The translations under genes were made by a program, and so were the position numbers. Below, piece by piece: positions 37,297 to 57,332 of a stretch of DNA of 64,000 nt. Under the pieces are notes generated by a model. The model made no database searches. It was given only the letters and a program-made list of their open reading frames with translations, and was not told the DNA's origin. Origin of the DNA: Gemmatimonas aurantiaca (GTDB lineage: Bacteria; Gemmatimonadota; Gemmatimonadetes; Gemmatimonadales; Gemmatimonadaceae). Every line of letters begins with the position of its first letter. The first letter of the stretch is position 1. Location: contig JBIQMO010000002.1 in NCBI GenBank assembly GCA_044463245.1, forward strand, positions 10,338-74,337, written 5' to 3'.

Positions 37297-37500
37297 CATA
37301 CCCTACCGAAGCGTCTGGTAGGGTATCTTGTTATGTGGCAATGTGTTGCCGTGGTGCTACCCCAGACTTAACCGTTGGCCTTGGGGTCAAACCTTGGGTA
37401 GCGTCCCCTCTTGGTTCCCGGTCGGGGGCGCCCCGCTAGCGCCGCACGCTCCGCCACGAGCGAGCTCGCCTGGGATGGCTCACCGCGTCCGCATCGCTTC

Positions 37501-37875
37501 GTGGTCATCCCTATTCCTGCGCCTGGGCGCCGGCTTGGTGGTCGGCCGGTGAACACTGGGGAGCTGACGGGCCTTGCCTGGCGTTCCACGCTGGGGCTGG
37601 CTCACGCTCACGGTGCGATGCTCGCCGACCCGATGCTGGCCACGCCGGAAGAGCCAACGCGGCTCGCAGCCACACTCGGGGCAGCGGTCTCCAGGCTGCC
37701 GCGACGCAGTGTGAGCGACTGGTTCGACGTGATGGCGCGCGTTCGCGCGGTAGGTCGTATCCTGCGGCCAGAGGACTACCGGTCAACGAGGGAGAGTTCC
37801 CTCGAAGAACTCACTGTGTGGATAGCGGAAAGTAGGAGGTTCGTAGTTGAGCAGCGCAGTCCGCGAACTCCCTAG
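37501..37875 (+). CDS. Hypothetical 124-aa protein, copy 1 of a duplicated gene
   Basis: Aligns end to end with ORF 45133-45507, with about 85 of 124 residues identical by hand alignment. GTG 37501 is the start equivalent to the copy-2 start. Confidence 0.5.
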   Translation: MVIPIPAPGRRLGGRPVNTGELTGLAWRSTLGLAHAHGAMLADPMLATPEEPTRLAATLGAAVSRLPRRSVSDWFDVMARVRAVGRILRPEDYRSTRESSLEELTVWIAESRRFVVEQRSPRTP

Positions 37876-37941
37876 AGGCGGCGGCGCCGTCTGATTCCGG
37901 CGGCTTAGAGAGCAAAGACACTGCTTTAGAAAAATAGACTC

Positions 37942-40900
37942 CTAACGGCCTGCGCGCAGAGCGTGGAGTGCGGCGAGCGCGATGCGCTCGACATGATCGT
38001 CCGCTAGCGAGTCGAGCAACTGCTGCAGGGCGGTGCGAAGGTGAGAGCGCGTGGGTTCGTCGGCAGGTTGGGATCTCGACCCATCGGTGAGTTCGCGGTA
38101 TACCCGCCCGGCCCCTTCCGCCACGCCCATCCGCACCTCAGGTGACGAGGCGCGTGCGCTCGAAGCCAACTGGTTCAGTATGCACGCGCGTTCCTCCTCG
38201 CCGGCCACCGGAAGCAGTGTCGAGAGCCAGCCTATCGCGTAACGCTGGAGTCCGTCGGGCGTATGCCCTATCACCCTAACGCCGCTGGCGAGGGGGGATG
38301 CGAAATCGTCAAACCCGCCCATAGGGTGCAGTTCGCCACGCGCCGCAGTCTGAAGTGCGGAGATGGCATCCCGGAGTAGCGACGGCGTATCCTGCGCCAG
38401 AAGCGCAATGAACGGAATCCACATCCTGCGTTCCGTGAGCAAGTGCCCCGGCGTGAGCAGGAATTCGATCGCCGAAGCGAGGGCGCGCCGCCGGACTGGT
38501 TCGCTAGCACGGCTCGCGGCCCATCGGGTCATCGGCAACACATCACGGGCGCCCCCGCCGTATGACCCACTGCCAGCCTGTGCGCACAGGGCCTCGAGCA
38601 AGTCGGCTTGACTGTTGAGGTAGTGATCCGCGACCTCGCTCGGGACGTCAATGCCAGCGGCGAGCGCGCGCTCCACCTGGAGCCATTCCGCGACCGACCC
38701 GCCGTCCGGCTGGGCGCGTGCGGTGAGTTGTCCCCTCAGCCGCTCGCGCGCGGCACCGGTCGCACGAAGCGAGAGCATCGCGACCGCACCGACCCACTGC
38801 GGCTCCGCCCCTGCCGATTTCGCACGCTCCTCCTGCACCATCAGTGCGTCAGCGAGTGCAGCGCCGCCGTCTACCGGGGGCGGAGCGTTCGCTGCAGCGA
38901 CTGCGAAGGCGTTCAACACATCGTCGAGCTCTGTCGCAGGTGCAGAGGGAAGCAGGAGAACCACGGCATCGCGTACGTCTGCCGCCCCCTCTCCCTCGAG
39001 AGGCGGGTCGAGCTCAAGGATCAGGTCGATCGCCGCACCGGCGCCGTTGAGTTCCCGGCGCCTCGCCCACCCGAGGCCTAGGCCAGCAACGACCAAGTTG
39101 GCGATATGTCTGTCTCGGTCGGCGAACCGCCATCGGCTCGCGAGTAGGTTGGCGAAACGCAGAGCGCCGACGGTCGCCTCGGGAGAGTCAAGGTTGTCTG
39201 ACAACGCCTCCCAGAGCTTGGCAGTGAAGGCACCCGTCATCCGTTCGGCGATAACTGTGACAAACGCACTTACAGCACTCGAGTCGACGTCCTCTACGAG
39301 CGCGTAGGTGCGCGCCGTCTCGCGAATCGCAACCAGCATCGCGTCATCGAGAGGGGCCTCTACCACCGCGGCGCGCCATATCGCAGCGAGTAGGATCGTC
39401 GCCTCCTCGTGCGCGGCATGATCCGCGTCTTGGCCACTGAGCGCGAGGGCAGTCCGGGCGGCAACGTACGCCTCGTGTAATCGCCTTCGCCCGAGCAATT
39501 CGCGCGCACGACGCATCAGCCGTTCGTGCGTCGTTCGTTGCTTGATCGTGGCTTCCACGAGTGGCTCTAGCCCCGCCGCGAGCTTGCCGGGTCGGCGATC
39601 GCTGAGATCGATGAGGCCTGCTCGAACATCTGCCCGCTCCGCGTTTCGAAACGCGCGAAGAGCCGTGTAGAGGTCACCGTGCTCGAGAGCGTTCGTACCA
39701 GCCGCTCGAAATTGCTGGCCGGCTTCGCCATGGGCGCCAGAGGCGGTCTGGAGCCACGCCACCACGAGAGCGCGATCGGCATACATATGCTCCGGCACCG
39801 GCAGCTGTTGCGCAGCTGTAATGGCGCCGGCCGTATCGTCGTGCAGACCTGAATGCAATAGAGCCCGCAAGCGCGCGCATAGCACAGTCTCCACATCGCC
39901 GGCTCCCGCGCTGACGATCATGTCGGCGAGAGCGCTGTACGATTGTGCAGCGATAAGGTGGTCCTCAGCCACAGTGGCGGCCAATGCATTTAGCCGATGG
40001 GCCTCGAGTCTCAGAATGGGTGCGGCGTGCGCGTCCGCCGTGGCCGCTCGTTCGGCTAGGCGCGGCGCGAGCTCAGTCGCCTTCCTGGAGAACCCGGCCA
40101 GCGCTTCCGCCTCGGCTTCCAGCGCCTCCAGCGCCAATCTCGTGGCGTCTGGCAGGTCTTCGGTCCACAGACGCCGCTCCTCCGGGCGATCAGGGGCGCG
40201 CGACATACTGAGAGTCACCCTCGCCTTGTCACCATCGCGGAGCTCGTGAAGTATCCACTCGAGCACCTCCGCTAGTCGTTCTCCAGCCTTCGCCCGTTGG
40301 TTGCCGCGCACAAGCGCGCGAACCGCGATCTGGCCCGCCTCGGCGGCCTCATAGGGGAATCCTTCGGCGCGGAGTGATTGCGAGAGTTCCCACGCGCGGT
40401 CGCCCGCAACAGCATGGTCATTTTCTGTCCGAGCAGCGGTGATCGCCTCGTACATCGCCGCCTGCTCACGGGCAAGCGCATCCGGCAACGCGAGCCTTGC
40501 AGCGAGTGAAGGCGGAGCGGGAGTCGCGATGGCAGCGATTGCATCCGCAGCGCTTGCATCGAGTCGTTGGCTTGCCGGAACAGGAATCTTATAAGACTGC
40601 TCCGTCTCCTCGAACTCGCCTGAGCTCACTAGGGCCCAGAATGCCTGGCCGGTCTCAGGGTCGACGAGAGTAAGAACCACCGGCACGGCGTACTGGCGCC
40701 AATAGTGGACGGTTCGCTTGTCGATATAGACATTCCATCCACCGTCATAGCGATTGTGAAAGAAGGTGGCCCCGGCCTTGATCTGTACGCCGATAATACG
40801 GCCCGTACCCTCGCCAGAAGTCTGGTCAATTATTTCCAGGTGACCGTCGATGCCGATGTCGGCATACGGTTGCGGCCGGAAGACGAAGCCAAGTCCGCCG

Positions 40901-40986
40901 TCTATCCGCGGCCTGGCGACGATCGCGGTTGTCATTCCGACGCCGAAGAGTTCCGTACGAGAGTTGCCGATGTTCGGCAGTGTCAT
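37942..40986 (-). CDS. DUF4365-type (PD-(D/E)xK-like) nuclease domain fused to an ~850-aa HEAT/TPR-like alpha-solenoid
   Basis: N-terminus YADIGIDGHLEI...GRIIGVQIKAG (40777-40860). The remainder is Ala/Leu/Arg-rich helical repeats. I found no Walker A motif. Confidence 0.75.
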   Translation of the reverse strand: MTLPNIGNSRTELFGVGMTTAIVARPRIDGGLGFVFRPQPYADIGIDGHLEIIDQTSGEGTGRIIGVQIKAGATFFHNRYDGGWNVYIDKRTVHYWRQYAVPVVLTLVDPETGQAFWALVSSGEFEETEQSYKIPVPASQRLDASAADAIAAIATPAPPSLAARLALPDALAREQAAMYEAITAARTENDHAVAGDRAWELSQSLRAEGFPYEAAEAGQIAVRALVRGNQRAKAGERLAEVLEWILHELRDGDKARVTLSMSRAPDRPEERRLWTEDLPDATRLALEALEAEAEALAGFSRKATELAPRLAERAATADAHAAPILRLEAHRLNALAATVAEDHLIAAQSYSALADMIVSAGAGDVETVLCARLRALLHSGLHDDTAGAITAAQQLPVPEHMYADRALVVAWLQTASGAHGEAGQQFRAAGTNALEHGDLYTALRAFRNAERADVRAGLIDLSDRRPGKLAAGLEPLVEATIKQRTTHERLMRRARELLGRRRLHEAYVAARTALALSGQDADHAAHEEATILLAAIWRAAVVEAPLDDAMLVAIRETARTYALVEDVDSSAVSAFVTVIAERMTGAFTAKLWEALSDNLDSPEATVGALRFANLLASRWRFADRDRHIANLVVAGLGLGWARRRELNGAGAAIDLILELDPPLEGEGAADVRDAVVLLLPSAPATELDDVLNAFAVAAANAPPPVDGGAALADALMVQEERAKSAGAEPQWVGAVAMLSLRATGAARERLRGQLTARAQPDGGSVAEWLQVERALAAGIDVPSEVADHYLNSQADLLEALCAQAGSGSYGGGARDVLPMTRWAASRASEPVRRRALASAIEFLLTPGHLLTERRMWIPFIALLAQDTPSLLRDAISALQTAARGELHPMGGFDDFASPLASGVRVIGHTPDGLQRYAIGWLSTLLPVAGEEERACILNQLASSARASSPEVRMGVAEGAGRVYRELTDGSRSQPADEPTRSHLRTALQQLLDSLADDHVERIALAALHALRAGR

Positions 40987-42848: not shown

Positions 42849-42857
42849 GGAGGGAGC

Positions 42858-44955: not shown

Positions 44956-45132
44956 GGTGTATAGCCCGTTCCGTGGTGGCCTGTATGCCTGGAGGGATCT
45001 TCAGTGGGGAATTGCGGTGAGCTGCAGCTTGAGCAGTGTGGAGCCTATTCGTAGGGTGTGCAAGTGGCGTCTCCCGTCCGTACCGGCTATCGGCTACATT
45101 CGCGTAATGACTAGTCGCACCGGTAGCTCTAC

Positions 45133-45507
45133 GTGGTCATCCTGATTCCTGCACCAGGCCGACGTCCTGATGGCCGGCCGTTGAACACGAGAGAACTGAC
45201 GGATCTCGCGTGGCGTTCTACGTTGGGCCTGGCTCGAGGTCGCGGTGCGACGCTCGCTGACCCGATGCTAGCCACGCCGGAAGAGGCGACGCAGCTAGCA
45301 GCGGCACTCGGGTCAGCGATCCCCGGATTACCCGTCCGGAGTGTGAGCGAATGGATCGACGGGATGGCGCGCGCTCGCGCTGCCGGCCGTACGCCGCGGT
45401 CGGAAGACTACTGGTCCACGAGGGAGAGCACCCTCGAAGAGCTCGCGGAATGGATAGCAGAGAGCGAAGGGTTCACCGTAGAACTCCGCGGTCGGCGCGC
45501 CTCCTAG
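45133..45507 (+). CDS. Hypothetical 124-aa protein, copy 2 of the duplicated gene
   Basis: Paralogue of 37501-37875, with a GTG start. Confidence 0.5.
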   Translation: MVILIPAPGRRPDGRPLNTRELTDLAWRSTLGLARGRGATLADPMLATPEEATQLAAALGSAIPGLPVRSVSEWIDGMARARAAGRTPRSEDYWSTRESTLEELAEWIAESEGFTVELRGRRAS

Positions 45508-45544
45508 AAGCGACGCCGCCCTGTGTCGGCCCGTGGCTTGCCGA

Positions 45545-45889
45545 TCAGCGCACTAATGGCAACAAGATCGCAATAGCGAACGTGCGAACTCTGCTAGGCT
45601 GATCGCTCGCGAGAAGCGCGGTCACGTCTTCGGGAGTGAGCACGACTCCCGCGGTTAGCTTGTCCCAGTCCGGCACGCGCCACTCGCGGTCACTGCGAAC
45701 CACGTCGACGTACACGGCGATCGCCAGCCGCGTGCGCGCGGTCGGCTCACTGCCATCCGCTATCCGCCAGCGGGTTAGGAACAGAATATCGTCCGCGAGC
45801 CCCGAGGTCGCGAACGACACCTCTTGGTCTGCGAAGAGGACGGGCCTCGGGGGGCCGTAGAAGACGCCCAGCCGGCTTTCAGGCGGCAT
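45545..45889 (-). CDS. Hypothetical protein
   Basis: 114-aa ORF convergent with copy 2. No recognisable motif. Support is ORF length and composition only. Confidence 0.35.
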   Translation of the reverse strand: MPPESRLGVFYGPPRPVLFADQEVSFATSGLADDILFLTRWRIADGSEPTARTRLAIAVYVDVVRSDREWRVPDWDKLTAGVVLTPEDVTALLASDQPSRVRTFAIAILLPLVR

Positions 45890-46158
45890 CCGCGAAAGCT
45901 AGCGACCTGCCGCCTGCAGATCACATCGAGTAAGACAGCAACGGTACCCCGAAGAGCGCCGTTGCTCGAGACCTCGTGGGCCGGCCTGCGAGGGGGGTGC
46001 TACAGTGGTAACTCGGGTACCGTCGCTCCATCGCGCGCTTGGCGGAAACTCACCGAGCGACCGAAGACTCTAGCGGGAAGGGGAGGCTTCATGCGATTGC
46101 CTCTGCCAGTCGCCATTGACGACACCATACGCACGGTGCGGGGCTACCAACAAGGCCT

Positions 46159-46180
46159 CCGGGATCCCTGTCGGGGATCC
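46159..46180 (+). repeat. GGGATCCCTGTCGGGG-family repeat copy (hairpin form GGATCCC-TGTC-GGGGATCC)
   Basis: Core at 46161-46176, in the spacer just downstream of the 46200-46664 gene. Confidence 0.85.
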
Positions 46181-46199
46181 GCCCGCACCGCGCTCCGTG

Positions 46200-46664
46200 T
46201 CACCACCACTCAGGGAGCCAACGGCCGGAGCACTCCATCCACAATCGCCGTTCCGCACCGCCGCGGTGCTCTCCAACGAGCTCGCCCAGGCGCACAATAC
46301 ACCTGGCGCAGTGCGTGCGTGAACGCGGGCGGCCATTCTCGACTGGTGGCACGCTCGCCGCGCACGCCTCGCAGATCTCGGCGCTCTCCCGCGTGGCGTC
46401 AGCCGCCACTCGATAGACGCGACCGACGCCCGAGTGGGGCGCGAGAGATATCACGAGCCGCGCCGCTTTCTGCCTCACATCGATGACGCTGACTCCCGGA
46501 GACTCGGCGACAGCACTGTACACCATTCGTAAGAGACCCCACCAACCCGGCCCGATGGCGGACAGCGCCCTGCCGAGGTGCCAGGGCGTGCCGTCGGGAT
46601 GGCGCAGCTCGAGCGTCTCATCCAGCGTGCTGTAGCGGTGACTCATGACGAAATTGTACCCCAT
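46200..46664 (-). CDS. Hypothetical protein with C-terminal Cys cluster
   Basis: 154 aa with GWWGLL..VIDVRQKAARLVISL and CEAC..HCARC. This resembles small phage/plasmid-borne proteins of unknown function. Confidence 0.45.
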   Translation of the reverse strand: MGYNFVMSHRYSTLDETLELRHPDGTPWHLGRALSAIGPGWWGLLRMVYSAVAESPGVSVIDVRQKAARLVISLAPHSGVGRVYRVAADATRESAEICEACAASVPPVENGRPRSRTHCARCIVRLGELVGEHRGGAERRLWMECSGRWLPEWW

Positions 46665-46697
46665 CCTGACCGCTCACCGCGCCGCCTTCGCCGACCA

Positions 46698-46745
46698 AGT
46701 GGGAATCATTCGGTGGCTTCGTTCCCGCCGCCACTAACAATACCC
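46698..46745 (+). repeat. Direct repeat S1 (partner S2 at 49518-49567)
   Basis: AGTGGGAATCATTCGGTGGCTTCGTTCCCGCCGCCACTAACAATACCCC against AGTGGAATCTTTCGCTGGCTTCGTTCCCGGCCGGCTCAAACAATACACCC. Hand alignment gives about 80-85 percent identity with small indels. Confidence 0.8.
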
Positions 46746-46933: not shown

Positions 46934-48136
46934 TTGCTTGCCAAGGAGATTGACGATATGCAAGAGCTTCGCCTTCCGGCGCAGCAGTTCCGCGCCATGC
47001 CAGCGCCCAACGGTAAGTCCCGTGTGGGCCTTTTTTACGTTCCAGTTGCTCAGGTACCCGCTGACCTGGCCAATTGGCGGGACGTAAATCCGCGCGAAGT
47101 GAACTCCCGGAGTTCCACGTACAAGTCCATCGTGGAGACGCTGACGGACGAACCGGAACGGTTTCACGAACGCAACCGTGGGATTACTGTCGTCGCCCAG
47201 GAGTTCGCCTACGACGACAAGAGGAAAGAGGTGGTGCTAGGACTTTCCGACAAGTCTCAGCACGGTGTGGTGGACGGATCACACACTCTGCACGCCATCC
47301 TCGCGACTCAGGCGTCACTGCCTGAGAGTGGCTGGCCCGCCCATGTGTTCGTGATTGCGAAGACTGGCATCGATCCGGAACAGATCGCGGAAGTCGCGGG
47401 TGGACTCAACACTAGCCAGCAGGTTGACCTGAAGAGCCTGGAGAACCTCCGGGATCACTTCGCCACCTTGCAGAAGGTGATTGCAGACCAGCCGTACGCG
47501 GACAAGATCGCGTACAAGATGAACGAGGCGAAACCTATCGATGTCCGCGAGGTGTTGTACTACCTGGCCGTGTTCGATGCTGAGGCGTACAACGGCAATC
47601 GACATCCCGTCGCGCTGTTCGGTCGCAAGGAAGGTATTGTTCGCGAGTTCGCCCGCCAGGCGGATGGTACGTCCTCGTCGAAGTCCTTCAAGATTCTTAC
47701 GTCCCGGACAGCGGACATCCTTCGTCTGCGCGACTTGATAGAGAAGAAGGCATTGGCCCTCAATGTCGGTCGGTACAAGGCAGGCAAGAAGGCACGCGTT
47801 CGCAGCGAGAGTAACCGCGAGAGCATGCTGTACTTCATCGATGAAAAGGTGAATGGCAAGATCCCTCTGGGGTGGATCATGCCGATGCTAGCGGCCTTCA
47901 GGGCAAACGTCGAGTGGAACAAGCCCAGGGGAACGTTCTCCTGGTCCGTGCCCACCGACGAGCTTCTGGAGCGCTCGATCGAACGCCTCGTAGCGGGGAT
48001 ACTGGAAGTTCATGACCAGGAGAACAGCCGCCCAGAGTTCGTAGGCCGGAATTCGATCGCGTGGCGTATGAGTTACGCTACTGTGTCGCAAGCCATCCTG
48101 GAGATGCAGCTGAGTAAGGAGCGTAGGCGCCACTAG
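46934..48136 (+). CDS. AIPR-like (abortive infection phage resistance family) protein
   Basis: FHERNRGITVVA ... HGVVDGSHTLHAI resembles the NNGIT / NGxQT core I recall for Pfam AIPR. 400 aa, TTG start, low-GC gene. Confidence 0.5.
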   Translation: MLAKEIDDMQELRLPAQQFRAMPAPNGKSRVGLFYVPVAQVPADLANWRDVNPREVNSRSSTYKSIVETLTDEPERFHERNRGITVVAQEFAYDDKRKEVVLGLSDKSQHGVVDGSHTLHAILATQASLPESGWPAHVFVIAKTGIDPEQIAEVAGGLNTSQQVDLKSLENLRDHFATLQKVIADQPYADKIAYKMNEAKPIDVREVLYYLAVFDAEAYNGNRHPVALFGRKEGIVREFARQADGTSSSKSFKILTSRTADILRLRDLIEKKALALNVGRYKAGKKARVRSESNRESMLYFIDEKVNGKIPLGWIMPMLAAFRANVEWNKPRGTFSWSVPTDELLERSIERLVAGILEVHDQENSRPEFVGRNSIAWRMSYATVSQAILEMQLSKERRRH

Positions 48137-48323
48137 TAGTGGTCGGTGTGAGGAGCGGCGCTAGCCTAATCGGCGCTGGCGCCGCTTCTGCACCTATGAA
48201 TTCGCGAGCGTGGTGGGCCGCATCCTGGCCGGGGCAATTCTCCTCGTCCGCTCCCTCAAATACCATCGCGTGCGCAACGCCAGGACTGACCTACTGGCCG
48301 AGGGTCAATCGCTCATCCGCGCC

Positions 48324-48653
48324 TTACCCATGCTTCGAGGTTTCAACAATCACGGGAGTCGGTGGCGGATATACGTAACCATCACCCGTGGTTGAGGTGA
48401 CGGCGAAGGTGAGATACACAGTGCGTGGGAGCAGATAGGTCTCGAGCTGATCCCTGAATCCCCGGAGTGTGATCTCGCCAGCCATAACCGTCGCTGCGTG
48501 AATCGTTGGCAACTCCACGCGAGCGTCGGCTCCTTCGCCGGACTTGATATCCAGCAGCACGCCGACCAGAGGGCGTGCACGGTTAGCATTCCGTCCGGTG
48601 ATCTGTAGCCGGACCGGCTGGCCGCGTGCGATCGAGTTAGATGCGAAACTCAC
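48324..48653 (-). CDS. Hypothetical protein
   Basis: 109-aa ORF with beta-rich composition, directly abutting the permease relic junction. Confidence 0.35.
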   Translation of the reverse strand: MSFASNSIARGQPVRLQITGRNANRARPLVGVLLDIKSGEGADARVELPTIHAATVMAGEITLRGFRDQLETYLLPRTVYLTFAVTSTTGDGYVYPPPTPVIVETSKHG

Positions 48654-48700
48654 GGAAGGTACGTCGATCAGTTCGTCGGACTTACCTTCTGCCTTGATTC

Positions 48701-49430
48701 CTACACCGTCCGGATACCAATCTCGCGCGTCCGACGCGCCACGCTCGCGGCGGTGACACTGAAGACCCCGACGACGGCCAGGACCACACCGAAGGCAGCG
48801 CCGACGCTCAGGAGGAACGCCACCGTTCGCAGCGGGTCAAGCGACTCATCCACGACATCCTCGACGGTGCGGATGGAGTACGCCGGCACGGTCGGGTCGA
48901 CGCTAGCTACAGCCTGCCGGACAGCCTGAACGAACTGGCCGTTGCGCACCGGACTACGAACGACGAAAGCGCATCGAGCGCGGCGGGTCGATGTACGTCG
49001 GCAGGTAGAACTGCCGAGCCACTCCCGCGAACCGTCGAGGGGGCGGCCGCGCACCGTGCGAACGACGCCGATGATCGTATACGCGCTGTCCCACGTCCGT
49101 CACCTTGATCTGCTGTCCCACGGCATCTTCTACCCGGCCGAGTCGGCGTGCCAGTTTCTCGTCCACGACCATCACCGGAGCTCCGTTCGCCACATCCGCC
49201 TCAGTGAAGCTGCGTCCGGCGAGTACCGGGATGCGAAGCGCATTGAAGTAGCCGGGGGATATCGCGAAGAACTGGGCGATCGGTGGGTTCGCCTGATTCG
49301 ACTGCTTCGGCCTGCCGACCACGTCGAACGTGAGCCCCGTTTGAGAGTGCGTGCGGTGGCGGTGCGTGCCAATCGCTCCGCGCTCGAACCCTGAGTTCTC
49401 ACTCCACGACGCAGCGACAATTGGGGCGCT
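48701..49430 (-). pseudogene. Relic of a MacB/FtsX-type (ADOP-like) ABC permease, frameshifted and truncated
   Basis: The MacB periplasmic-domain-like segment FFAISPGYFNALRIPVLAGRSFTEAD is in one frame. FLLSVGAAFGVVLAVVGVFSVTAASVARRTREIGIR is in another frame and ends abruptly at 48701, where FtsX domains normally continue with two more TM helices. Confidence 0.7.
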
Positions 49431-49517
49431 CTGTGCGCAGGAACGATCGTCGACAGCGCTGTGCATCCCCTCACGTTCGCTGTTGGGGAGTCGTGCATCA
49501 CGCTCGCCACCGGCCGG

Positions 49518-49567
49518 AGTGGAATCTTTCGCTGGCTTCGTTCCCGGCCGGCTCAAACAATACACCC
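49518..49567 (+). repeat. Direct repeat S2 (partner S1 at 46698-46745)
   Basis: See S1. It ends 20 nt before the integrase stop codon. Confidence 0.8.
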
Positions 49568-49586
49568 GTGTTCTACGAGAGTAGAC

Positions 49587-50531
49587 TTATGCAGCGGTCC
49601 CCACACGCTCGCGGCGATATACCAACGTCTGATCGACGCTCGCGTGGCGCATGTGGGCCATGACATCGATCGCCGGCACACCTGCCTCGAGAGCCGTGGT
49701 AGCGTAGGTGGCTCGCAGTGAGTGGCCAGAGAAGAGCTCTGGCTCGCATCCGGCACGCACTGCAGCAGCGCGGACGATATCGTCCACCGCGTCGGCGCTG
49801 AGGCTCGGGCGAAGCGTCCTGCCGCCCTTGTGAAGCCCGCGGAACACCGGCCCCTCCTTGATGTTCGCTGACTCGAGCCAGGCCGTCAGCAGGGTGGCTG
49901 GATTGATTCTCGGCGCCCAGGGGGCCACTCGCGCCACCTGCCACACGCCGATCCCGGTCTTATCGGCCTTCGAGCGCCGCACTAGCGCGCGCACGCTATC
50001 ACTGCCGATTCGCAGGTCTTCCACCATCAGTCCCACTACCTCGCTCTCGCGGAAAGCGCCGGCGAAGAGAAGGGAGAGCAGGGCTGCGTCACGCAGCCCT
50101 GCAAGCGTGTTCAGCGGGAGAGTGAGAATGGCGCGCGTGAGCTGCTCGCTGGTGAAGGCCTCGGCCTGGCGCTGGCCGCGTCCCACCGCCACGAGACGAC
50201 CGGCGCCGGCGGCGGTGTCCGCGGTCGCACTGTCTTCGAACGGGTCGATGCCAACCTCGCGGCGGAGCAGGCGCTTCACCGCGGCGCGGCGGACGGCGAG
50301 GGTCGCGCGTGCACACCCGGTGCCGATGTGGGCGGCGAGAAAGTCACGCACGACCTCACGCGCGCTGTCCTGATCACCCGGCAAGGGATCCCGACTGCCG
50401 GCAGCACACCAGTCAAGGTAGGCTCGCTCGGCGATGCCATACGCGCGCTTGGTGTTCGCTGCGAGCGCGGCGTCTGCAGCGTCTTGCGCGCTGGTAGTTG
50501 GAGTTGTAGGGAGGCTGATGCGCCGACTCAT
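49587..50531 (-). CDS. Tyrosine recombinase / phage-type integrase
   Basis: Catalytic C-terminal region AGAFRESEV (Arg), HSLRATYATTA (HxxR), MAHMRHAS and TLVYRRE (Tyr). 314 aa. Confidence 0.9.
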   Translation of the reverse strand: MSRRISLPTTPTTSAQDAADAALAANTKRAYGIAERAYLDWCAAGSRDPLPGDQDSAREVVRDFLAAHIGTGCARATLAVRRAAVKRLLRREVGIDPFEDSATADTAAGAGRLVAVGRGQRQAEAFTSEQLTRAILTLPLNTLAGLRDAALLSLLFAGAFRESEVVGLMVEDLRIGSDSVRALVRRSKADKTGIGVWQVARVAPWAPRINPATLLTAWLESANIKEGPVFRGLHKGGRTLRPSLSADAVDDIVRAAAVRAGCEPELFSGHSLRATYATTALEAGVPAIDVMAHMRHASVDQTLVYRRERVGTAA

Positions 50532-50669
50532 GGATTAGACCAGTGAAGGGGAGTTATCAGGAGTGATTACTAAGAGAGTACGGGGCAGCGAGCGTAGGGC
50601 CGACTACACGGGCTTCGACGGCGTGGAGTGGCTTAGGGTGCGATGGCGCGGCCGAGGGTACGCACCCTT

Positions 50670-50689
50670 CCCGGGATCCCTGTCGGGGG
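50670..50689 (+). repeat. GGGATCCCTGTCGGGG-family repeat copy (left arm of an 18-bp inverted pair)
   Basis: CCCGGGATCCCTGTCGGGGG. It is followed by CGACAG, which gives a local CTGTCG-GGGG-CGACAG hairpin. Confidence 0.9.
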
Positions 50690-51057
50690 CGACAGCGGAG
50701 CGAGGGCTACGGCGTCGGCCATGGCGCAGCGCACGCGATCGTGTGGTGTGCGTGGTGAGCGATTACCTTCCTCTTTCGGCAGTTGTTCGGGTGTCCACCA
50801 CGCCGAAGTCGATGGTACCGGCTACAGCAATCCCATGCGTCGCACCCGCTCAGTGCGTTCGCGCGCTCCGAGTGTGCGTGCGTCTGTCGGGGTCGCTTGA
50901 GGGTGCGGCTCGAAGATCGGCTCGATCTGGGGAATCGTTCGAGCCACGGTGTGGCGCTGGGCGGGAAGGTGCCGGAGGGCCGGCTGGTCGCTCGTGCTCT
51001 GGCAAGGTGTCAGAAAGTCGGTGGAGACTGGGGCGGATGGGGGTGTCGGGGTGGCTA

Positions 51058-51076
51058 CCCGACAGGGATCCCGGGG
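51058..51076 (-). repeat. GGGATCCCTGTCGGGG-family repeat copy (right arm of the inverted pair)
   Basis: CCCGACAGGGATCCCGGGG, preceded by GCTACC. It lies about 50 nt upstream of the methylase ATG. Confidence 0.9.
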
Positions 51077-51124
51077 CTGTGTGTGTGGCCGGGTACGCTA
51101 AGCGCGTTATCTTCCGGAGTGAAA

Positions 51125-52162
51125 ATGAGCGATTCGTATACCCATCCATCGCAGCTTCTGAACGCGCATCCCAAGGGGGTGCGGTGCGTCCACACAACGG
51201 AGCTCGGCGCCATCTATCAAGGCGACTGCCTGGCGTGGCTGCGCGCGCTTCCCGACGACTCCGTGGACCTGGTTTTCGCCGATCCGCCGTTCAACTTGAA
51301 CAAGGACTACGGGAAGGGCGTGTCGGACAAGATGAAGGACGACGAGTACCTCGCCTGGTCCTTCGGATGGCTGGACGAGTGCGTGCGAATTCTCGCTCCG
51401 GGCGGCGCGCTGATGGTATTCAATCTGCCGCGGTGGTGCATTGACTACGGAGCGCACTTGGGCGGCGCCGGACTGCTCTTCCGCCACTGGATCGCGTGCC
51501 GGATGCCCAAGAGCATGCCGATCCCGAAGCGCATGTCGCCGTCGCATTATGGGCTTCTGTACTACACGAAGGGCAAGCCGAAGACGTTCAACGTCGTGCG
51601 GCACCCCGTGCAGACGTGCCGCCATTGTGGTGGCGAGGTAAAGGACTACGGCGGGCACCGCGACAAGCTCAACCCTGCAGGGCTGAGGTTGCAGGACGTC
51701 TTCGACGCGCCAGACGAAGTGTGGGAGGACGCGCCGGACGCCCTGCCGCCCGGTGAAGCGTGGTCCAGACTCGACGAGATCTGGGACGACGTCCCGCCAG
51801 TGCGTCACGCACGATACAAGCACCGCGACGCTAACGCCCTCGCGCCGATCCTGCTGGAGCGCTGTATCGCTATGACGACCAACCCTGGCGACCTCGTACT
51901 TGATCCGTTCTGCGGCACCGGCACGACCGCCTACGCGGCGGAGCTGCTCGAGCGGCGCTGGCTCACAATCGAGCTAGGAGATACGACGCCGGCAATACAG
52001 CGTCTCACCGATTACGCCAACGGGGATCACCCCAAGTGGGAGACGGCGCGCGGCAAGGCGCGGGTGAACGGGGCGTCGCTGGATAGGCGCAAGCGGAAGA
52101 ACGGCCGGCGGGCCACCGATATCGAGCCAGAGCTGCCACTCGGAATCGAGGGGCGTGCATAG
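51125..52162 (+). CDS. Beta-class amino (N4-C/N6-A) DNA methyltransferase, M.BamHI-like
   Basis: [10 protein letters not shown] (motif IV) near the N-terminus and [10 protein letters not shown] (motif I) near the C-terminus. Convergent partner of a BamHI-like endonuclease. ATG 51125 is residue 115 of the ORF-track ORF. Confidence 0.85.
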
Positions 52163-52180
52163 GCGCAGACGCGCGCTAGG

Positions 52181-52792
52181 CTATCTCAGCGCGCGTCCGT
52201 CCGTGCCCTTCTTGATCCGCGGGACATCCATGCTGGTGTCGTCGTGCTCCACTACGAAAAGGCCGAGCACACCCTCCGCATCGACCGCACCGCGCCAGAA
52301 CGGGAGGAAGGGCGTGATCTCCTCGAAGTTGCCGACGCGATCGGTGAGGTAGCGATACAGGGCCCTCGTGGGTAGGATGACCGCGCCACCGGCCAGCCGC
52401 CCCTCTTTCATACCGAGGGAGATTTTGTTCAGCGAGCGATGCGTACTCGAGACGTTGCCAGTCTCCCACTCCAACGCGAAATAAGTGCTGCCGATTCCGT
52501 CCACCGTGATCGGCCGTAGCGCGTCGATCGGCCCCGTGCCCTTGCCGTAGCCGATTTTGTACCGCGCTTCAAGCTGCCAGCCGTACAGGTCTCGGAGTGT
52601 GGCCATGCAGGCCTGCTTGATCGGCACCACCCCATTCGCTTTAGGTTCAGGATAGATCGCGAACCTATCGTTACCCGGCGGCCACACCACGCGCGAGATG
52701 GCGTCCGCGATCTCGCCATACATGTCCTTCCACAAGTCGGACTCGGATAGCGCGCCCCTGCATATCAGTAGTTCCACGTGTACGAGTTTCAT
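52181..52792 (-). CDS. Type II restriction endonuclease, BamHI family
   Basis: 203 aa. NGVVPIK, GPIDAL, FALEWETGNVSSTHRSLNKISLGMK, YRYLTDRVGNFEEITPF and IKKGTDG run colinear with BamHI as I recall it (NGVVPIK, GPIDV, GMEFETGNISSAHRSMNKLLLGLK, YYLTDRVTNFEELEPYF, IPKGSDG). The catalytic Asp and Glu-x-Glu positions are kept. Confidence 0.87.
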   Translation of the reverse strand: MKLVHVELLICRGALSESDLWKDMYGEIADAISRVVWPPGNDRFAIYPEPKANGVVPIKQACMATLRDLYGWQLEARYKIGYGKGTGPIDALRPITVDGIGSTYFALEWETGNVSSTHRSLNKISLGMKEGRLAGGAVILPTRALYRYLTDRVGNFEEITPFLPFWRGAVDAEGVLGLFVVEHDDTSMDVPRIKKGTDGRALR

Positions 52793-52837
52793 GGGGCGAT
52801 GATGACATCAGGCGATCTCATCCGGAAGCCCACCCAC

Positions 52838-52851
52838 GGGATCCCTGTCGG
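52838..52851 (+). repeat. GGGATCCCTGTCGG repeat copy
   Basis: Lies in the spacer between the endonuclease start and the next gene. Shares an extended ~55-nt context with the 56972 copy. Confidence 0.85.
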
Positions 52852-52950
52852 TGGGACGTGGCACGGCAGAACGGCGTCAGAGATAGGGGAAGGCACCAGC
52901 GGAGACGGGAGGGAGAGTGACCGGAGCAAGCGCCAACCCGTCTCGCATGT

Positions 52951-53415
52951 ATGGAGCATCTTCGAGAGTTCTTTCGTCGGCACACGACGTTCACGGTTCG
53001 CGCGGCGCTCATCGCAATCGCGGTAGCCATCTTCGGTTGGCCGTACCTGCCGAGAGGATCCGCGCGAGAGAGGCTTGCAGGAACGGCGTGGATCCAGTTC
53101 CCCATTCCGATGGTCGCGGAGAAGCTGGTTTTGCGCAGCGATGGAACCGCCGAACACTCCTACCGTGAGCTCGAAGGGCAGGAGCGCTACCGCGCCCAGT
53201 CTGGGCTATGGTACCTCGCTCGTGGGGACAGTGTGCTCTGCTTTCAGCCCGTCTCCGACAGCGCCCTTCCAGACGGACTGGCGAAGTGTCGCGCATTTTG
53301 GTTCGATTCAGACGACAACGAAGAAGCGATGCACTGGGGGATCGGCGATACGTTGTCGTACATGGGCTTCGAGCGCGACTCCTACCGGGAGCACCGGGAT
53401 ACGACGGTGTACTGA
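52951..53415 (+). CDS. Hypothetical membrane-anchored protein
   Basis: 154 aa with an N-terminal hydrophobic segment AALIAIAVAIFGWPYL. Confidence 0.42.
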   Translation: MEHLREFFRRHTTFTVRAALIAIAVAIFGWPYLPRGSARERLAGTAWIQFPIPMVAEKLVLRSDGTAEHSYRELEGQERYRAQSGLWYLARGDSVLCFQPVSDSALPDGLAKCRAFWFDSDDNEEAMHWGIGDTLSYMGFERDSYREHRDTTVY

Positions 53416-53450
53416 GCGCGTTTCGCGCCCGATCCTCGTCATCTAACCTC

Positions 53451-53882
53451 ATGAATAAACCAGACCCGGGACCCGGTGGATGGGGGAGAGATTGGCGTGA
53501 CGCCAAGCCTCCGGAGAAGGACCCTCAGCTAGCCCGTATGGACGGCGCTTTGGGCGCAGGCTGCGTGATGATCGCGCTCGGGTTGCTTGCGACGTGCGGC
53601 ACACTGGTGTCGTCCGGATCCGGAGACAGCGCATCGCCGGAAGGTGCTCTAGCAGGCCTCATTTTCCTGGGAGGCGGCTTCCTGGCGTGGCGCTGGGCCG
53701 ACCGTATCGCCAAGCAGAGAGCTCGTGAGGAGCAAGCGGGTCGGCAGGCCGCGTTGGACGCGATTGACGGAGAAACGGAGGCCAGGCTGAAGCAGGTACG
53801 CGAGAGGGATTACCCACCGCGGCCATTCCCCTACAGGGCCCCTCAGCGACCGGAATCCAAACCGCCGTCCGAATCGGAATGA
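53451..53882 (+). CDS. Hypothetical membrane protein
   Basis: 143 aa from ATG 53451. Two hydrophobic segments (GAGCVMIALGLLATCG and LAGLIFLGGGFLAW) followed by a charged tail. Confidence 0.42.
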   Translation: MNKPDPGPGGWGRDWRDAKPPEKDPQLARMDGALGAGCVMIALGLLATCGTLVSSGSGDSASPEGALAGLIFLGGGFLAWRWADRIAKQRAREEQAGRQAALDAIDGETEARLKQVRERDYPPRPFPYRAPQRPESKPPSESE

Positions 53883-53937
53883 CGTTCCGCTGACGCGCCC
53901 CGGTATTGTGCGCCTCCGCCCTAACAGAGAGGATCAC

Positions 53938-54213
53938 ATGCCGAAGCCAGCACGCGCGCCGATCGTCGGTGAATCCGTCCATTTTTATGAGCACCGGCTC
54001 TCCGGCGAGTTCGGCCCGCTGGCAGCGCTCGTCACCTACGTTTCGCCAAGTGAGTGGCGCGTCAACCACGAAGGTTCGGTGCACCTCGCAGTGATAGGCG
54101 AGGCCACGGTGCGGCATATACCTGACGTGCCGTTCGACGATGGCGGTGCGTACGCCGGATGTTGGTGGCGGTGGCCCGAGGCGGTGGAGCGCGTCCACCA
54201 GAGCGGGTTGTAG
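53938..54213 (+). CDS. Hypothetical small protein
   Basis: 91 aa from ATG 53938, with AGAGGA upstream. Confidence 0.38.
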   Translation: MPKPARAPIVGESVHFYEHRLSGEFGPLAALVTYVSPSEWRVNHEGSVHLAVIGEATVRHIPDVPFDDGGAYAGCWWRWPEAVERVHQSGL

Positions 54214-54313
54214 CTCGGGATCTCTTTCGGCGAGCAGGGTCGGGCATGTCGTGCGGGCAGACAGGCGCAACACCCTTGCAGCCGGTACAGTGTCGGATGT
54301 GACACACTCAACG

Positions 54314-54832
54314 ATGCGGTCGCGACCGAGACGCCGGGATTCCGGCCGTCGTGCGTGTGAAGTATGCGGCCGCGACGGCGCACGAGTGAGTGCGGAGCTC
54401 GCGGGTTGGGCGCGTGTGCTTTGCACGTACCACGCATGGGAGCTCGCGACCCACCCCGGCAGTCGGACCGGGTGGACGGCCTGGGCGAGAGGGCGGTACA
54501 TAGCGCTGCTCAACTCCGGCCACCGCGAGCTGTCCGCGATTATCGATTGCGCCGCGACAGGGAGCGCGTGCCCGCCCTCGGTCATGTGCGCGGTGCTTCG
54601 CTGCATTCCGCCGCAGTGGTTAGAGGCGGCCACCCCCGGCGAGGTAGAAATCAACCGCCTCGAGGCGATGTGGCTGGTCGAGGGGCCGCGGTTGTACGCG
54701 CTTCGGCACTTGGCAACGCGAGAGTCGCTGTCCAAGTGCTCGATGGGCGACCTCGAACCATCCCTGCGTTCTGCGAGCCCGCTAGTGCGCGAGGCGGCTC
54801 TCCGAGCGTTGGCGCTGCTACCACGGGCGTAG
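54314..54832 (+). CDS. Hypothetical protein with N-terminal Cys/His cluster
   Basis: About 172 aa with ACEVCGRDG...LCTYHAW. Start uncertain. The stop TAG lies inside the conserved CGTAGTCT that precedes the next repeat. Confidence 0.38.
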   Translation: MRSRPRRRDSGRRACEVCGRDGARVSAELAGWARVLCTYHAWELATHPGSRTGWTAWARGRYIALLNSGHRELSAIIDCAATGSACPPSVMCAVLRCIPPQWLEAATPGEVEINRLEAMWLVEGPRLYALRHLATRESLSKCSMGDLEPSLRSASPLVREAALRALALLPRA

Positions 54833-54845
54833 TCTGGTGTGCCCG

Positions 54846-54864
54846 CCCGGGATCCCTGTCGGGG
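54846..54864 (+). repeat. GGGATCCCTGTCGGGG repeat copy
   Basis: CCCGGGATCCCTGTCGGGG, 14 nt after the stop at 54832, between convergent ORFs. Confidence 0.9.
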
Positions 54865-54883
54865 AGGGACCGGCCGAAACGGA

Positions 54884-55633
54884 CTAGGGGCAGCCCGAAA
54901 CGTCGCATCCGGAGCCGACCCTACTTCGAGCTACCAGGCAACCTCGAGGTCGCAGGTGCGCGAGAGGATCATGTGAGTGCTCATGCTTGAAGTATAGCGC
55001 GTTATGCTGCGTCGTCGAGCATATTCGCGTCCTCGTCGGCGTCCTCAGTACGCCGAGCGATGAGTCGTCCATCAGGCACTCGGGCGGGGCACACACGTCG
55101 TCACCGAGGTCGCATCCCAGGTCGACCGTATCGGTATCCCGCGCTGCCCAGTGACGCGGCACCCGGTTGACCTTACCGCCGACAGGGGAACCCGTGGGAG
55201 CGAAGTGTGCGGCCCCTGTGCTCTCACGACGAACTGCGTGCATTCTTCGTGTTGAGTACCGCGCCAGGGTCGGTATTGCTGTCGTCCTGAGTCTTCCGGC
55301 CGACGGCAGAGCGATGACGGCTACGGCCACGCGCACTCGAGTCGGGTGGAAGCCCGATGCACACCAATCGAGCGCCGAGTCGGAAGGTGGTGGATGCGGA
55401 AGGTGGACACGCTCTGCAGCCACTTCGACCGGGGGGAAGAGCCGGATCGACTCGATGAGGTCTGCGATAGCGCCTCGGACGTCGGCGACGCGCTCACGTA
55501 GCAGCGCCACCCGTGGGAGCGAGCTCCGATTTTCGCTAACGTGCCGGCCGATAGCACAGGTCAGAAGCCGCCTTGAGCGGCGAGACTCGCGCGCCTGTGT
55601 GGCGAAGGAGAAGGGACGACTGGCGCATCGCAT
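54884..55633 (-). CDS. Hypothetical protein (weak call)
   Basis: A frame with GC-rich third positions over at least part of its length (for example VALLRERVADVRGAIADLIESIR). However, it contains a degenerate repeat copy at 55179-55198, so coding status is doubtful. Confidence 0.28.
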   Translation of the reverse strand: MRCASRPFSFATQARESRRSRRLLTCAIGRHVSENRSSLPRVALLRERVADVRGAIADLIESIRLFPPVEVAAERVHLPHPPPSDSALDWCASGFHPTRVRVAVAVIALPSAGRLRTTAIPTLARYSTRRMHAVRRESTGAAHFAPTGSPVGGKVNRVPRHWAARDTDTVDLGCDLGDDVCAPPECLMDDSSLGVLRTPTRTRICSTTQHNALYFKHEHSHDPLAHLRPRGCLVARSRVGSGCDVSGCP

Positions 55634-55788
55634 AGTCCGGCGGCGTGCGACCGCGCGACCACGCGGCCGGCTGCACCACGGGCGCAGCGTAACGCGAACG
55701 CCCCGAAGAGAGTCAGATGGGCGAGGCATTTTCGACGTCGCAATCGACATCGGCGTCGACGTTTACGCCATCCAAGACCATCGCTCCA

Positions 55789-56652
55789 ATGCAAACGCCA
55801 CTTCATGCGTCGGCTCGGCGCCAGCTGCGCGGCTCCACTGTGCGGTGCAGTGCGCGCATCGCTCTCGTACTCCTTGGCCTCTCCTTCATCGCGTCGTTCG
55901 GAGCAGCATCGGCCGCCGTTGCACAGGACAGCACGGAGCGCACGCATCCGAAGGAGCTCCAGAACACGACGTGGAAGAGTGGAGATGAGGCGGTCGGCAC
56001 CATTACGCTGAGCCTCGCCGCGGACGGCCGCGCGCTCTGGACGACGGTGAAGTTCAGGAGAACCGTCACCGGCCCCGTGCTCGACGTGGAGGGCATACGG
56101 CACATGCTGGGGATGTGGTGGGTGCAAGACGGCAATGTGCTCATGTTCGAGGAGGTTGGGGCCGAACCGGGGAGAATCCCCTTCGGCGCCGGTACGGAGG
56201 CGCGGCTCGAGGGCCGGACGCTTACCTGGGAGATGCTCACCTGGACCCGGACGGACTTCATCGAGGTACCGAAATCCGGTACGCGGGATTGGGAAGAGCG
56301 GTTCTCGCGCGACCAGGCTCCCATGTTCGACTCGCATCCAAGCCCGCTCCAGAACACGGCCTGGCGTACCGGGAGCAAGGAGTACGGCGTGCTGACCGTG
56401 ATTTTCGCGGCCGACGGTAGCGCGCGGATGACGCTCGTGAAGCCAACGAAGACTCTCACCGGCCCGGAGCTCGACCCGAAGTCGCGCTCGGAGCAGGTCG
56501 GGATCTGGTGGGTGCAGGATGCCGTGGTGCTCTGTTTTCGTGCGACCGGGGATGGGATGACCGAAAAGCTCCCCGCCACGTGCGGCGAGGCGTTGATTAC
56601 CGGGAAGACGCTCAGCTGGCAGAACCTGGAGTGGAAGAAGCGCAAGTTCTAG
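55789..56652 (+). CDS. Secreted protein made of two homologous ~110-aa domains
   Basis: Signal peptide (IALVLLGLSFIASFGAASAAVAQ). Internal duplication: HPKELQNTTWKSGDE..GMWWVQDGNVLMF..GRTLTWEMLTW against HPSPLQNTAWRTGSK..GIWWVQDAVVLCF..GKTLSWQNLEW. Confidence 0.6.
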   Translation: MQTPLHASARRQLRGSTVRCSARIALVLLGLSFIASFGAASAAVAQDSTERTHPKELQNTTWKSGDEAVGTITLSLAADGRALWTTVKFRRTVTGPVLDVEGIRHMLGMWWVQDGNVLMFEEVGAEPGRIPFGAGTEARLEGRTLTWEMLTWTRTDFIEVPKSGTRDWEERFSRDQAPMFDSHPSPLQNTAWRTGSKEYGVLTVIFAADGSARMTLVKPTKTLTGPELDPKSRSEQVGIWWVQDAVVLCFRATGDGMTEKLPATCGEALITGKTLSWQNLEWKKRKF

Positions 56653-56971
56653 GCTGCCGCCGACCGCGGTACGCCCAGAGCGGGATCGAGTGCCCTGATA
56701 GCTGAGCGTAGCCGCCTGCGCTCGCTGATGCCTCCCGCGATGTTCGCCACCCCCGCTGCGAGGCGTCCCATCTGCCCTGAGTACGCTACCCCTGCCGTAC
56801 CTGCTGGCTGGCGCGGGCCAAGGAGCTACGCGATGACTCCTTCTAGTCGTTGGCGAACGTGTGTCGACGCGGCCACGGTATTCACGCGGCTATCGCTGCA
56901 TACCGGTACACTACGCCACGCGCGTCTTCGCAAAGGGGTTGGGGAATCGTAGTCTCATCAGGTCCACCACC

Positions 56972-56987
56972 GTGATCCCTGTCGGGG
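56972..56987 (+). repeat. Degenerate repeat copy GTGATCCCTGTCGGGG (GGATCC site lost)
   Basis: Same extended context as the 52838 copy (TCTCATC.GG..CCACC...GGACGTGG). Confidence 0.8.
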
Positions 56988-57243
56988 ACGTGGACGCGGG
57001 CGAAGACGAGGACGGGCCGATAGCCGAGCGAGTCCGCGCCTCATCGGCGCGATTCCCAGCACGCGAACCGGGCGAAGCGGATACACCCGGTACAGTGGCG
57101 GCCATGACGACCGTTGCTCTTATCGTGGTAGTCTACTTCGCTATCACACGTGCATCACGCATCGCTGCGCTCATCTTCCGACTCATTCTCGCGACACTGC
57201 TAGCCGTGGCGCTGTTCGGTGTCCATTGGTAAGGTGCCACAAC

Positions 57244-57306
57244 CACGGGATCCCTGTCGTCTGCTACCCCAGACTCTGGGCGGCACCCCGACAGGGATCC
57301 CGGGTG
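57244..57306. repeat. Hairpin built from two inverted repeat copies
   Basis: GGGATCCCTGTCG (57247-57259) and CGACAGGGATCCC (57289-57301) form a 13-bp perfect stem. The 29-nt loop contains TGCTACCCCAGACT. It sits between convergent genes. Confidence 0.9.
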
Positions 57307-57332
57307 ATGGGTAGGGGCGCCAGGGTGGAGGG

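Follow-up and report, generated by a model that had tools for sequence, protein, structure and literature searches.

An integrative element bounded by tRNA-Arg repeats

The DNA analysed here is a stretch of 64,000 nucleotides of the Gemmatimonas aurantiaca contig JBIQMO010000002.1 (positions 10,338 to 74,337; hereafter the window), and we are concerned with a short repeat that recurs in its right, accessory half and with the mobile element that carries this repeat. The left 37 kb of the window is ordinary chromosome of a Gram-negative bacterium (~67% G+C), encoding BamA, an LpxC-FabZ fusion, MurJ and UvrC. It is followed by a truncated 5' half of tRNA-Arg(CCT) (37253-37296, + strand, GCCCCTGTAGCTCAGGTGGATAGAGCAGCGGTTTCCTAAACCC; ARAGORN called no tRNA at these positions), which constitutes the left direct repeat (att) of the element. 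Logan contig SRR28167097_13387 (34,897 nt), an independent assembly of SRR28167097, is identical to the window and maps to 37267-72163: its start falls within the tRNA-Arg fragment and its end within a second copy of this 5' half (window-equivalent ~72131-72163, L165 21023-21051; window-equivalent coordinates continue the numbering past the right end of the window). Because this contig is bounded at both ends by tRNA-Arg 5'-half repeats, the region from 37.3 kb to window-equivalent 72.2 kb is, as judged from its sequence, a single 34.9-kb tRNA-Arg integrative element. Its own tyrosine integrase (425 amino acids (aa)) is encoded at the far end, at window-equivalent 70681-71958, outside the window; the recombinase gene at 49587-50531, which the original prediction from the sequence had taken for the anchoring integrase, is a second, internal one.

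The flanking direct repeats correspond to the 5' half of tRNA-Arg(CCT) and not to the usual 3' part. The left copy, a truncated fragment, is followed by a hairpin with a 10-bp stem, and the independent assembly broke exactly at the tRNA-Arg repeats. The 13-mer GCTACCCCAGACT (37356 and 57263) was discarded as an att of the island: it is at chance level for 64 kb, the real flanking repeat being the tRNA-Arg 5' half. A tRNA origin of the repeat family itself (a tRNA-derived att) was also rejected, since no T-arm or acceptor match was found, and no known Rfam family was detected in the window.

Eleven copies of a short asymmetric repeat

Searching the 64-kb window for GGGATCCCTGTCGGGG with up to three mismatches returned 13 matches versus 1.44 expected (standard deviation 1.23; none of 100 shuffles reached 13). 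Eight of these matches are solid copies, all in the accessory half, and three further copies lie on the same contig past the right end of the window, giving 11 in the element. A position weight matrix (PWM), built from 14 sites and scanned over 72 kb, scored the 11 copies at 27.7-36.1 bits, nothing else in the 72 kb exceeding 14.6 bits, a score of the order obtained with shuffled sequence. All 11 fall within 23.5 kb of the element (46161-69634), with none in the 37.2-kb chromosomal flank (window 1-37250); likewise, the palindrome GGGATCCC found at the centre of the repeat occurs eight times in the accessory half and nowhere in positions 1-37300. The core half is thus free of the motif, as the original prediction had it, and the sites are confined to the mobile element when judged against this flank.

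Site 1 (46161-46176, +; 28.4 bits) matches GGGATCCCTGTCGGGG exactly and has an iteron-like GGCTACCAACA 18 nt leftward (GCTACC at -18). Sites 2 (50673-50688, +; 29.4 bits) and 3 (51057-51072, -; 36.1 bits) are the left and right halves of an 18-bp perfect inverted repeat that encloses 368 bp of non-coding DNA between the divergent recombinase and methyltransferase genes, site 2 lying 142 nt upstream of the recombinase start codon and site 3 lying 53 nt upstream of that of the methyltransferase (51125). Site 4 (GGGATCCCTGTCGGTG; 52838-52853, +; 34.7 bits) is 46 nt upstream of the start codon of the BamHI-like gene, and site 5 (54849-54864, +; 32.4 bits) is another exact match to GGGATCCCTGTCGGGG. 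Site 6 (GTGATCCCTGTCGGGG; 56972-56987, +) is the exact left end of a 3.69-kb block common to a related element, R (see below), in which sites 7 and 8, an inverted pair 23 nt apart (57247-57262, +, and 57286-57301, -; 27.7 and 30.2 bits), are also kept. The sites beyond the window are at window-equivalent 68660 (+), 68880 (-) and 69619 (+). Along the element the orientations therefore read + + - + + + + - + - +; the intervals 51057/52838, 68880/69619, 50673/51057 and 57247/57286 are flanked by inverse sites and the remaining ones by direct sites.

The coordinates originally given for the eight solid copies proved right to within 1-3 nt in the mismatch search, and the spacings of 2165, 2011 and 2123 bp between same-orientation copies are correct. 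The family had been taken to end at 57306, whereas the copies at 68660, 68880 and 69619 extend it to the right. Three copies had been described as degenerate: the one at 56972 is a true member, but those at 37413 and 55179 score below 12 bits with the PWM, at shuffled-sequence level, and neither is supported as belonging to the family. The former (37412-37427, +; TGGTTCCCGGTCGGGG) has three mismatches at otherwise invariant positions; the tRNA break noted ~115 nt before it is the end of the truncated tRNA-Arg(CCT) 5' half.

An alignment of 12 distinct copies revealed a site in three parts. Positions -1 to +14 (CGGGATCCCTGTCGG, 15 nt) are invariant or nearly so, conservation is partial from +15 to +18 (G G R G), and the information content, high at -1 to +14, is low at -24 to -2. 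The site thus has a left arm that is C/A-rich and poorly conserved, a centre without variation that includes the 8-bp palindrome GGGATCCC, and a right arm that is likewise invariant (CCTGTCGG followed by G G R G). The C/A-rich run that the original prediction placed left of the motif corresponds to positions -8 to -2, mostly C or A, position -1 being always C; the CGTAGTCT that it reported ahead of both 54849 and 56972 is indeed there, and the context shared by 52838 and 56972 is real but extends over about 45-50 nt and not ~55. The site at 69619 is a near-symmetric variant, CCCGACA-ccgcc-GGGATCCC-TGTCGGTG.

GGATCC is embedded in 10 of the 11 sites, the exception being 56972 (GTGATCC). The coincidence with a BamHI-type module, pointed out in the original prediction, thus holds as a pattern. 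Avoidance or enrichment of GGATCC outside the repeat was considered and rejected: the hexamer occurs 12 times in the core half and 7 times, outside the repeat, in the accessory half, i.e. ~0.3 per kb, as base composition predicts.

Some sites have further sequences beside them. Of the 12 sites, 5 have GCTACC 18-56 nt away on the side of the C/A-rich arm, against ~0.3 expected (estimated from the island-wide GGTAGC density). In each of the three contexts in which site 68880 was found (window-equivalent 68690-68880, L165 ~17580-17768; L164 ~7865-8050; L174 2095-2260), 3-4 iteron-like units (GCGACC-N4-6-TGTTGGTAGCC) adjoin its G-rich arm. The iteron-like units and GCTACC may be an origin or an accessory protein-binding element.

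Four breaks between related elements fall on sites

A scan of metagenome contigs with an 18-mer gave 28 loci, among which only L125 and L131 are true relatives, the rest lying in coding sequence; in L126, which is not a relative, a 37-nt match to the extended motif sits inside a long open reading frame (ORF). The related element R is represented by Ga0182741_1002018 (L125/L164), by L163, an ENA contig identical to it, and by L131, a short contig from JGI. It has six sites, adjoins a 3' fragment of tRNA-Leu(CAA) (L164 4605-4665) and encodes an unrelated 440-aa integrase. Elements that share this backbone and these sites thus use different tRNA targets, by way of swapped int/xis modules; the junction concerned (window-equivalent 70324) bears no site.

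R and the window element have only two stretches in common, 56971-60661 and window-equivalent 68013-70324. The first starts inside site 6: identity with R (L164/L125/L131) is 36% to the left of the site, in a forced alignment of unrelated sequences, and 98.5% to its right, the switch point lying at or left of G[T/G]GATC. The block 56988-60661 is 95.7% identical to L164/L125 overall and 98.5% identical beside site 6, and at its far end, where there is no site, the identity decays gradually (98%, 96%, 82-85%, then unrelated). In the second stretch, identity with R is 52.7% directly left of site 68880 (-), 98.4-98.6% over the 723 bp between the sites and 75.7% directly right of site 69619 (+). 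This high identity between the sites, compared with the diverged flanks, argues that the module, which encodes a 131-aa protein, was recently exchanged and that both ends of the exchange were at sites.

The 131-aa module also occurs in another metagenome, on contig L174, at only 70% DNA identity, and there both flanking sites have a perfect 15-nt core; by calculation, a single stretch of 15 nt would remain intact at this identity with a probability of ~0.005. Beyond one of these sites (junction L174:1316) the sequence is unrelated to both other elements, and that site is inverted relative to the module. In all, four sharp breaks in homology or identity fall exactly on sites: 56972, 68880, 69619 and L174:1316. 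They support in kind the original prediction of recombination sites bounding multi-gene modules, though not of the integron type that it had brought to mind; breakpoints in relatives, which it had proposed to compare with the repeats, coincide with them at these four junctions, and three others, 60661, 68013 and 70324, bear no site.

A scan of genome contigs with CGGGATCCCTGTCGGG gave at least 119 single, unrelated matches, and none among the matches listed shares the context of the window. The motif was not found in viral and plasmid collections, and the sequence string had only an unrelated match in the literature.

Modules, cargo and an internal recombinase

The 11 sites, in both orientations, split a 23-kb stretch of the 34.9-kb element into modules of 23 bp to 11 kb: a BamHI-type restriction-modification (R-M) pair, an AIPR gene with the Xer-like recombinase gene, a backbone block with a rolling-circle Rep gene, and the 131-aa gene with a terminator are all site-bounded. 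The R-M module (51125-52792) lies between the inverse sites 3 and 4 and comprises a methyltransferase gene (51125-52162, +) and an endonuclease gene (52181-52792, -). Both Pfam (N6_N4_Mtase, E=1.1e-35; BamHI, E=1.6e-51) and PADLOC (MTase_II, E=3e-92; REase_II, E=3.5e-58) recognize it, in agreement with the BamHI-family pair read in the first block from the sequence.

The cargo is largely defence-related: besides the BamHI-family endonuclease and the N6_N4 methyltransferase, it includes AIPR (abortive-infection-type), a 1014-aa DUF4365 nuclease-like protein and a PDC-S11 candidate. The latter (376 aa; PADLOC E=1.7e-129; L165 13654-14784, window-equivalent 64766-65896) is encoded within 7.3 kb (window-equivalent 60661-68013) to which nothing in R corresponds.

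The internal Xer-like tyrosine recombinase (314 aa; 49587-50531, - strand; Pfam Phage_integrase, E=6.6e-14) is the candidate enzyme for the sites, as far as can be told from its sequence. XerC, XerD and XerA are its best NCBIfam models, all far under their cut-offs, and its database homologs are at most 36% identical. XerD (1a0p) is its best solved-structure match, in an alignment in which the R, K, HxxR, H and Y positions read as present. Directly downstream of its gene, two short ORFs (48701-49565, -) are fragments of a MacB-type permease (MacB_PCD, FtsX) and look like a broken captured gene.

In the backbone block common to R (56988-60661), a small ORF and another of 89 aa accompany the rolling-circle Rep_1 gene (58965-60146, -; identified with Pfam), whose product is distant kin of small-plasmid Rep proteins. 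The motif was not found near distant Rep_1 homologs. The nearest other homolog (44% identity) is encoded on L170 (JGI Ga0372944_0001074), a 12.2-kb contig devoid of the motif that also encodes Laminin_G_3 and F5_F8_type_C proteins; because its ends overlap by 126 nt (1-126 = 12014-12139), L170 is a circular ~12-kb plasmid or virus-like element.

Within the 131-aa module, a hairpin with a 14-bp stem (AAAGTGATCACACGC...GCGTGTGATCACTTT) between A and T runs looks like a bidirectional terminator; it is located at window-equivalent 68990-69060 (L165 ~17880-17950) and at L174 1915-1975, and is perfectly kept even at 70% module identity. Elsewhere in the cargo region, 37475-37774 and 45107-45406 form a 300-nt direct repeat (76% identity, 7.6 kb apart) that encodes paralogous small proteins with 67% amino-acid identity and no assigned function. 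Note that four genes called on the public contig (54884-55633, -; 57865-58533, +; 54251-54832, +; 50643-50900, +) have Arg/Ser/Cys-rich translations and poor codon scores and are probably not real, so that parts of the inter-site blocks may be non-coding or mis-annotated.

Interpretation of the repeat

We favour, with moderate confidence, the view that the repeats are asymmetric tyrosine-recombinase sites of sfx-like build that bound exchangeable modules as pdif sites do. The repeat would then be a site-specific recombination site of ~26-31 bp, whose conserved right arm would be bound specifically, and whose left arm would be bound loosely, by a tyrosine recombinase; cutting would take place within or beside the central GGATCC (invariant GGGATCC(C)), and strands could be exchanged between any two sites. 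Such exchanges would lead to inversion or deletion of modules when they occur within one element, and to module swaps when two elements reside together, cointegrate at one site and are resolved at another. The enzyme could be either the element-encoded 314-aa recombinase (49587-50531) or a host recombinase. It is the sfx-like anatomy, together with the dif-module-like behaviour, that leads us to infer the action of a tyrosine recombinase. Since their centre is palindromic, the sites could pair in either alignment, and intrinsic directionality should be lost, which fits the flipped site in L174 and the near-symmetric 69619 variant. That the sites act at the DNA level is suggested by their orientation relative to the flanking genes, which is not constant across the family, by the lack of covariation between their arms and by the lack of a terminator or a sigma-70 promoter at the sites. 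Indeed, none of the nine terminator-like predictions in 45500-58500 overlaps a site, no sigma-70 prediction coincides with one, and both possibilities were discarded.

Several observations weigh against this interpretation. The junctions at 60661 (a gradual decay), 68013 and 70324 between the elements are devoid of a site, and, because there are only two independent relatives (R and L174), the breakpoint statistics comprise four junctions. Rearranged isoforms were not observed: the Logan contig does not differ from the window. No homolog of the 314-aa recombinase is encoded in the visible 18.8 kb of R, which has the same sites, so that a host enzyme is equally possible, and no such sites were found near the distant homologs of the recombinase. 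Moreover, recombination could be passive, i.e. a short-homology crossover at the sole conserved sequence. Finally, at four confidently coding genes (those for the recombinase, the methyltransferase, the BamHI-like protein and the 131-aa protein) a site precedes the start codon by 46-142 nt and turns the same arm towards the gene in every case, which makes an operator role possible.

This last point underlies the strongest rival explanation, in which a DNA-binding protein encoded by the element or by its host, such as a global repressor or a protein of the ParB/KorB type, uses the repeat as an operator or a centromere-like site; the breaks would then be rare short-homology crossovers, funnelled there because diverged elements have no other conserved sequence in common. 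IncP-1 plasmids, for example, have 12 dispersed KorB operators. The 8-bp palindromic centre, the strong conservation of the sites against 70%-identical flanks and the excess of GCTACC to the C/A-arm side of the sites are all consistent with protein binding of this kind. However, sites 46161, 54849 and 57247/57286 lie between convergent gene ends or far from starts, and the genes common to the elements encode no recognizable helix-turn-helix, ParB or ribbon-helix-helix domain. Four junctions are on sites, one of them between wholly unrelated flanks, although 15-16 bp of identity support crossover only inefficiently. Site orientation also differs at homologous positions, a better fit to recombination than to a fixed operator, and we consider this explanation unlikely on balance.

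A selfish repeat resembling REP (repetitive extragenic palindrome), REPIN or MITE (miniature inverted-repeat transposable element) sequences, or a family of terminator hairpins, spread within the island, is in our opinion improbable. As in REP/REPIN-RAYT systems, the repeat is short, conserved and extragenic, and the inverted doublet 57247/57286, whose members are close together, recalls a REPIN (two REPs that form a hairpin); in addition, 50673-51072 forms a 400-bp unit with 18-bp perfect terminal inverted repeats, and some local hairpin can be folded from every copy. But these hairpins vary from copy to copy, and a model of conserved pairing was rejected, the arms of a site pairing with each other (5.57/9) no better than with those of other sites (5.21/9). 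The copies have no internal sequence in common and show no target-site duplication, the 37-kb chromosomal flank contains none of them, and Pfam scans of the ORFs tested turned up no Y1-transposase (RAYT) domain. Furthermore, elements with no more than 70% identity have sites at homologous positions, from which it follows that the sites are ancestral and conserved and not recent insertions. As for terminators, a G+C-rich hairpin with a T-tract at gene 3' ends is not what is found at the sites of 45500-58500, no site having a T-tract or a terminator prediction. The hairpin family that the original prediction had offered as its alternative is accordingly disfavoured. Even less probable is a tie to the BamHI-type R-M system, in which either cutting and rejoining at GGATCC makes the junctions or the 50673/51057 pair is an inverton that switches the methyltransferase or the recombinase, the other copies being incidental. 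A BamHI-family endonuclease and its N6_N4 methyltransferase do fill one module, the 56972 junction fits a break after position 2, the BamHI cut point (G^GATCC), and an inverted-repeat pair does surround a short segment (368 bp) between divergent genes and beside a recombinase gene, as in an inverton. GGATCC alone, however, would suffice for cutting and rejoining, and nine further flanking positions are invariant; outside the repeat the hexamer is no more frequent than base composition predicts; R has the same sites and no R-M genes in its visible part; and the inverton, of which one assembly form was seen, accounts for only 2 of the 11 sites. A chromosomal integron, or a CALIN (an attC cluster without integron integrase), with the sites as attC and the blocks as cassettes, has the least to recommend it and is very improbable. 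Like an integron, the locus is a platform of site-bounded cargo beside a tyrosine recombinase gene, divergent from an array of mostly same-orientation sites ~2 kb apart. Yet the 314-aa recombinase is not an IntI-type integrase (21 bits on the integron-integrase model TIGR02249 versus a cut-off of 265, over the C-terminal 70 residues only); the sites have no R''/L''-L'/R' boxes and, as already noted in the original prediction, neither GTTRRRY nor RYYYAAC ends; what they conserve is a 15-nt sequence and not an attC fold; the blocks are multi-gene and in both orientations; and sites are present on both sides of the recombinase gene and also 18 kb away, in the element backbone. Membership in the integrons is refuted.

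Comparison with known systems

Dif modules are bounded by pdif (XerC/XerD) sites and are known from Acinetobacter plasmids (PMC13141974, PMC6449649, PMC5790767); a cointegrate at one site and its resolution at another, for which an identical spacer is required, have been proposed to account for their movement (PMC13141974). In both that system and the present one, short asymmetric sites punctuate the accessory region of a mobile replicon and delimit modules that hold a single gene or several; a module may have either arm on its inside, or its two sites may be directly oriented ('C', 'D' and 'CD' modules). In both, the same module is met in different neighbourhoods with the junctions inside sites (here 56972, 68880, 69619 and L174:1316), and the central region is identical in all sites, which would let any pair recombine. 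In a pdif site, a XerC arm and a XerD arm flank a 6-bp spacer, and the whole resembles the chromosomal dif of the host; the present site is asymmetric, with a conserved centre and one conserved arm. The differences concern the site and its carrier. The centre of the present site is palindromic, and its sequence is GC-rich, unlike the canonical AT-rich dif consensus (the canonical one, and not the host's own dif). The carrier is not an Acinetobacter Rep_3 plasmid but a tRNA-integrated element with a rolling-circle Rep in a high-GC Gram-negative lineage; the strict C/D alternation of orientations is replaced by an arrangement in which only some intervals are flanked by inverse sites; and the element, known here from its sequence, encodes its own Xer-like recombinase beside a pair of sites.

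In its anatomy, the site resembles sfx of the IncI plasmid shufflon, in which a 12-bp left arm that varies is followed by a 7-bp core and a 12-bp right arm, both conserved; the recombinase Rci binds specifically to the right arm, its binding to the left arm being non-specific (PMC11852207). Here too, a highly variable left arm is followed by an invariant centre and right arm. Both systems have many copies in both orientations within a few kb and an adjacent tyrosine recombinase gene. However, shufflon segments are alternative 3' ends of pilV and only invert, while the segments described here are whole unrelated genes or operons and have moved between elements. In addition, the 314-aa recombinase ends 9 residues past its catalytic tyrosine and therefore lacks an Rci-type C-terminal domain.

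The reading given in the original prediction is partly supported by these sequence comparisons: in function, the site family is like an integron or a dif-module system, but it is a member of neither. A more ambitious proposal, which we put forward as doubtful, is that the sites and the Xer-like recombinase form a self-contained platform for cargo shuffling within integrative elements of a high-GC lineage. Whole-gene modules, many of them for defence (the R-M pair, AIPR, PDC-S11, the DUF4365 nuclease), would be inverted, excised or captured whatever the orientation of the sites, as these are of sfx-like build but palindromic where crossover takes place, and would be exchanged between elements that occupy different tRNA genes. 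Crossover would take place at GGATCC, the target of the R-M module, so that N4-cytosine methylation could gate recombination.

Exchange of site-bounded modules is known mostly from integrons and from Acinetobacter plasmids with their pdif modules. If the present interpretation is true, a third site family, unrelated to integron attC and to pdif, would do the same job in a chromosomal integrative element of a different lineage, with defence genes as cargo, which would suggest that small recombination-site 'connectors' are a general route by which mobile elements build and reshuffle defence islands. The site is short and sharply defined, hence easily searched for, and its central GGATCC makes a link between methylation and recombination directly testable.

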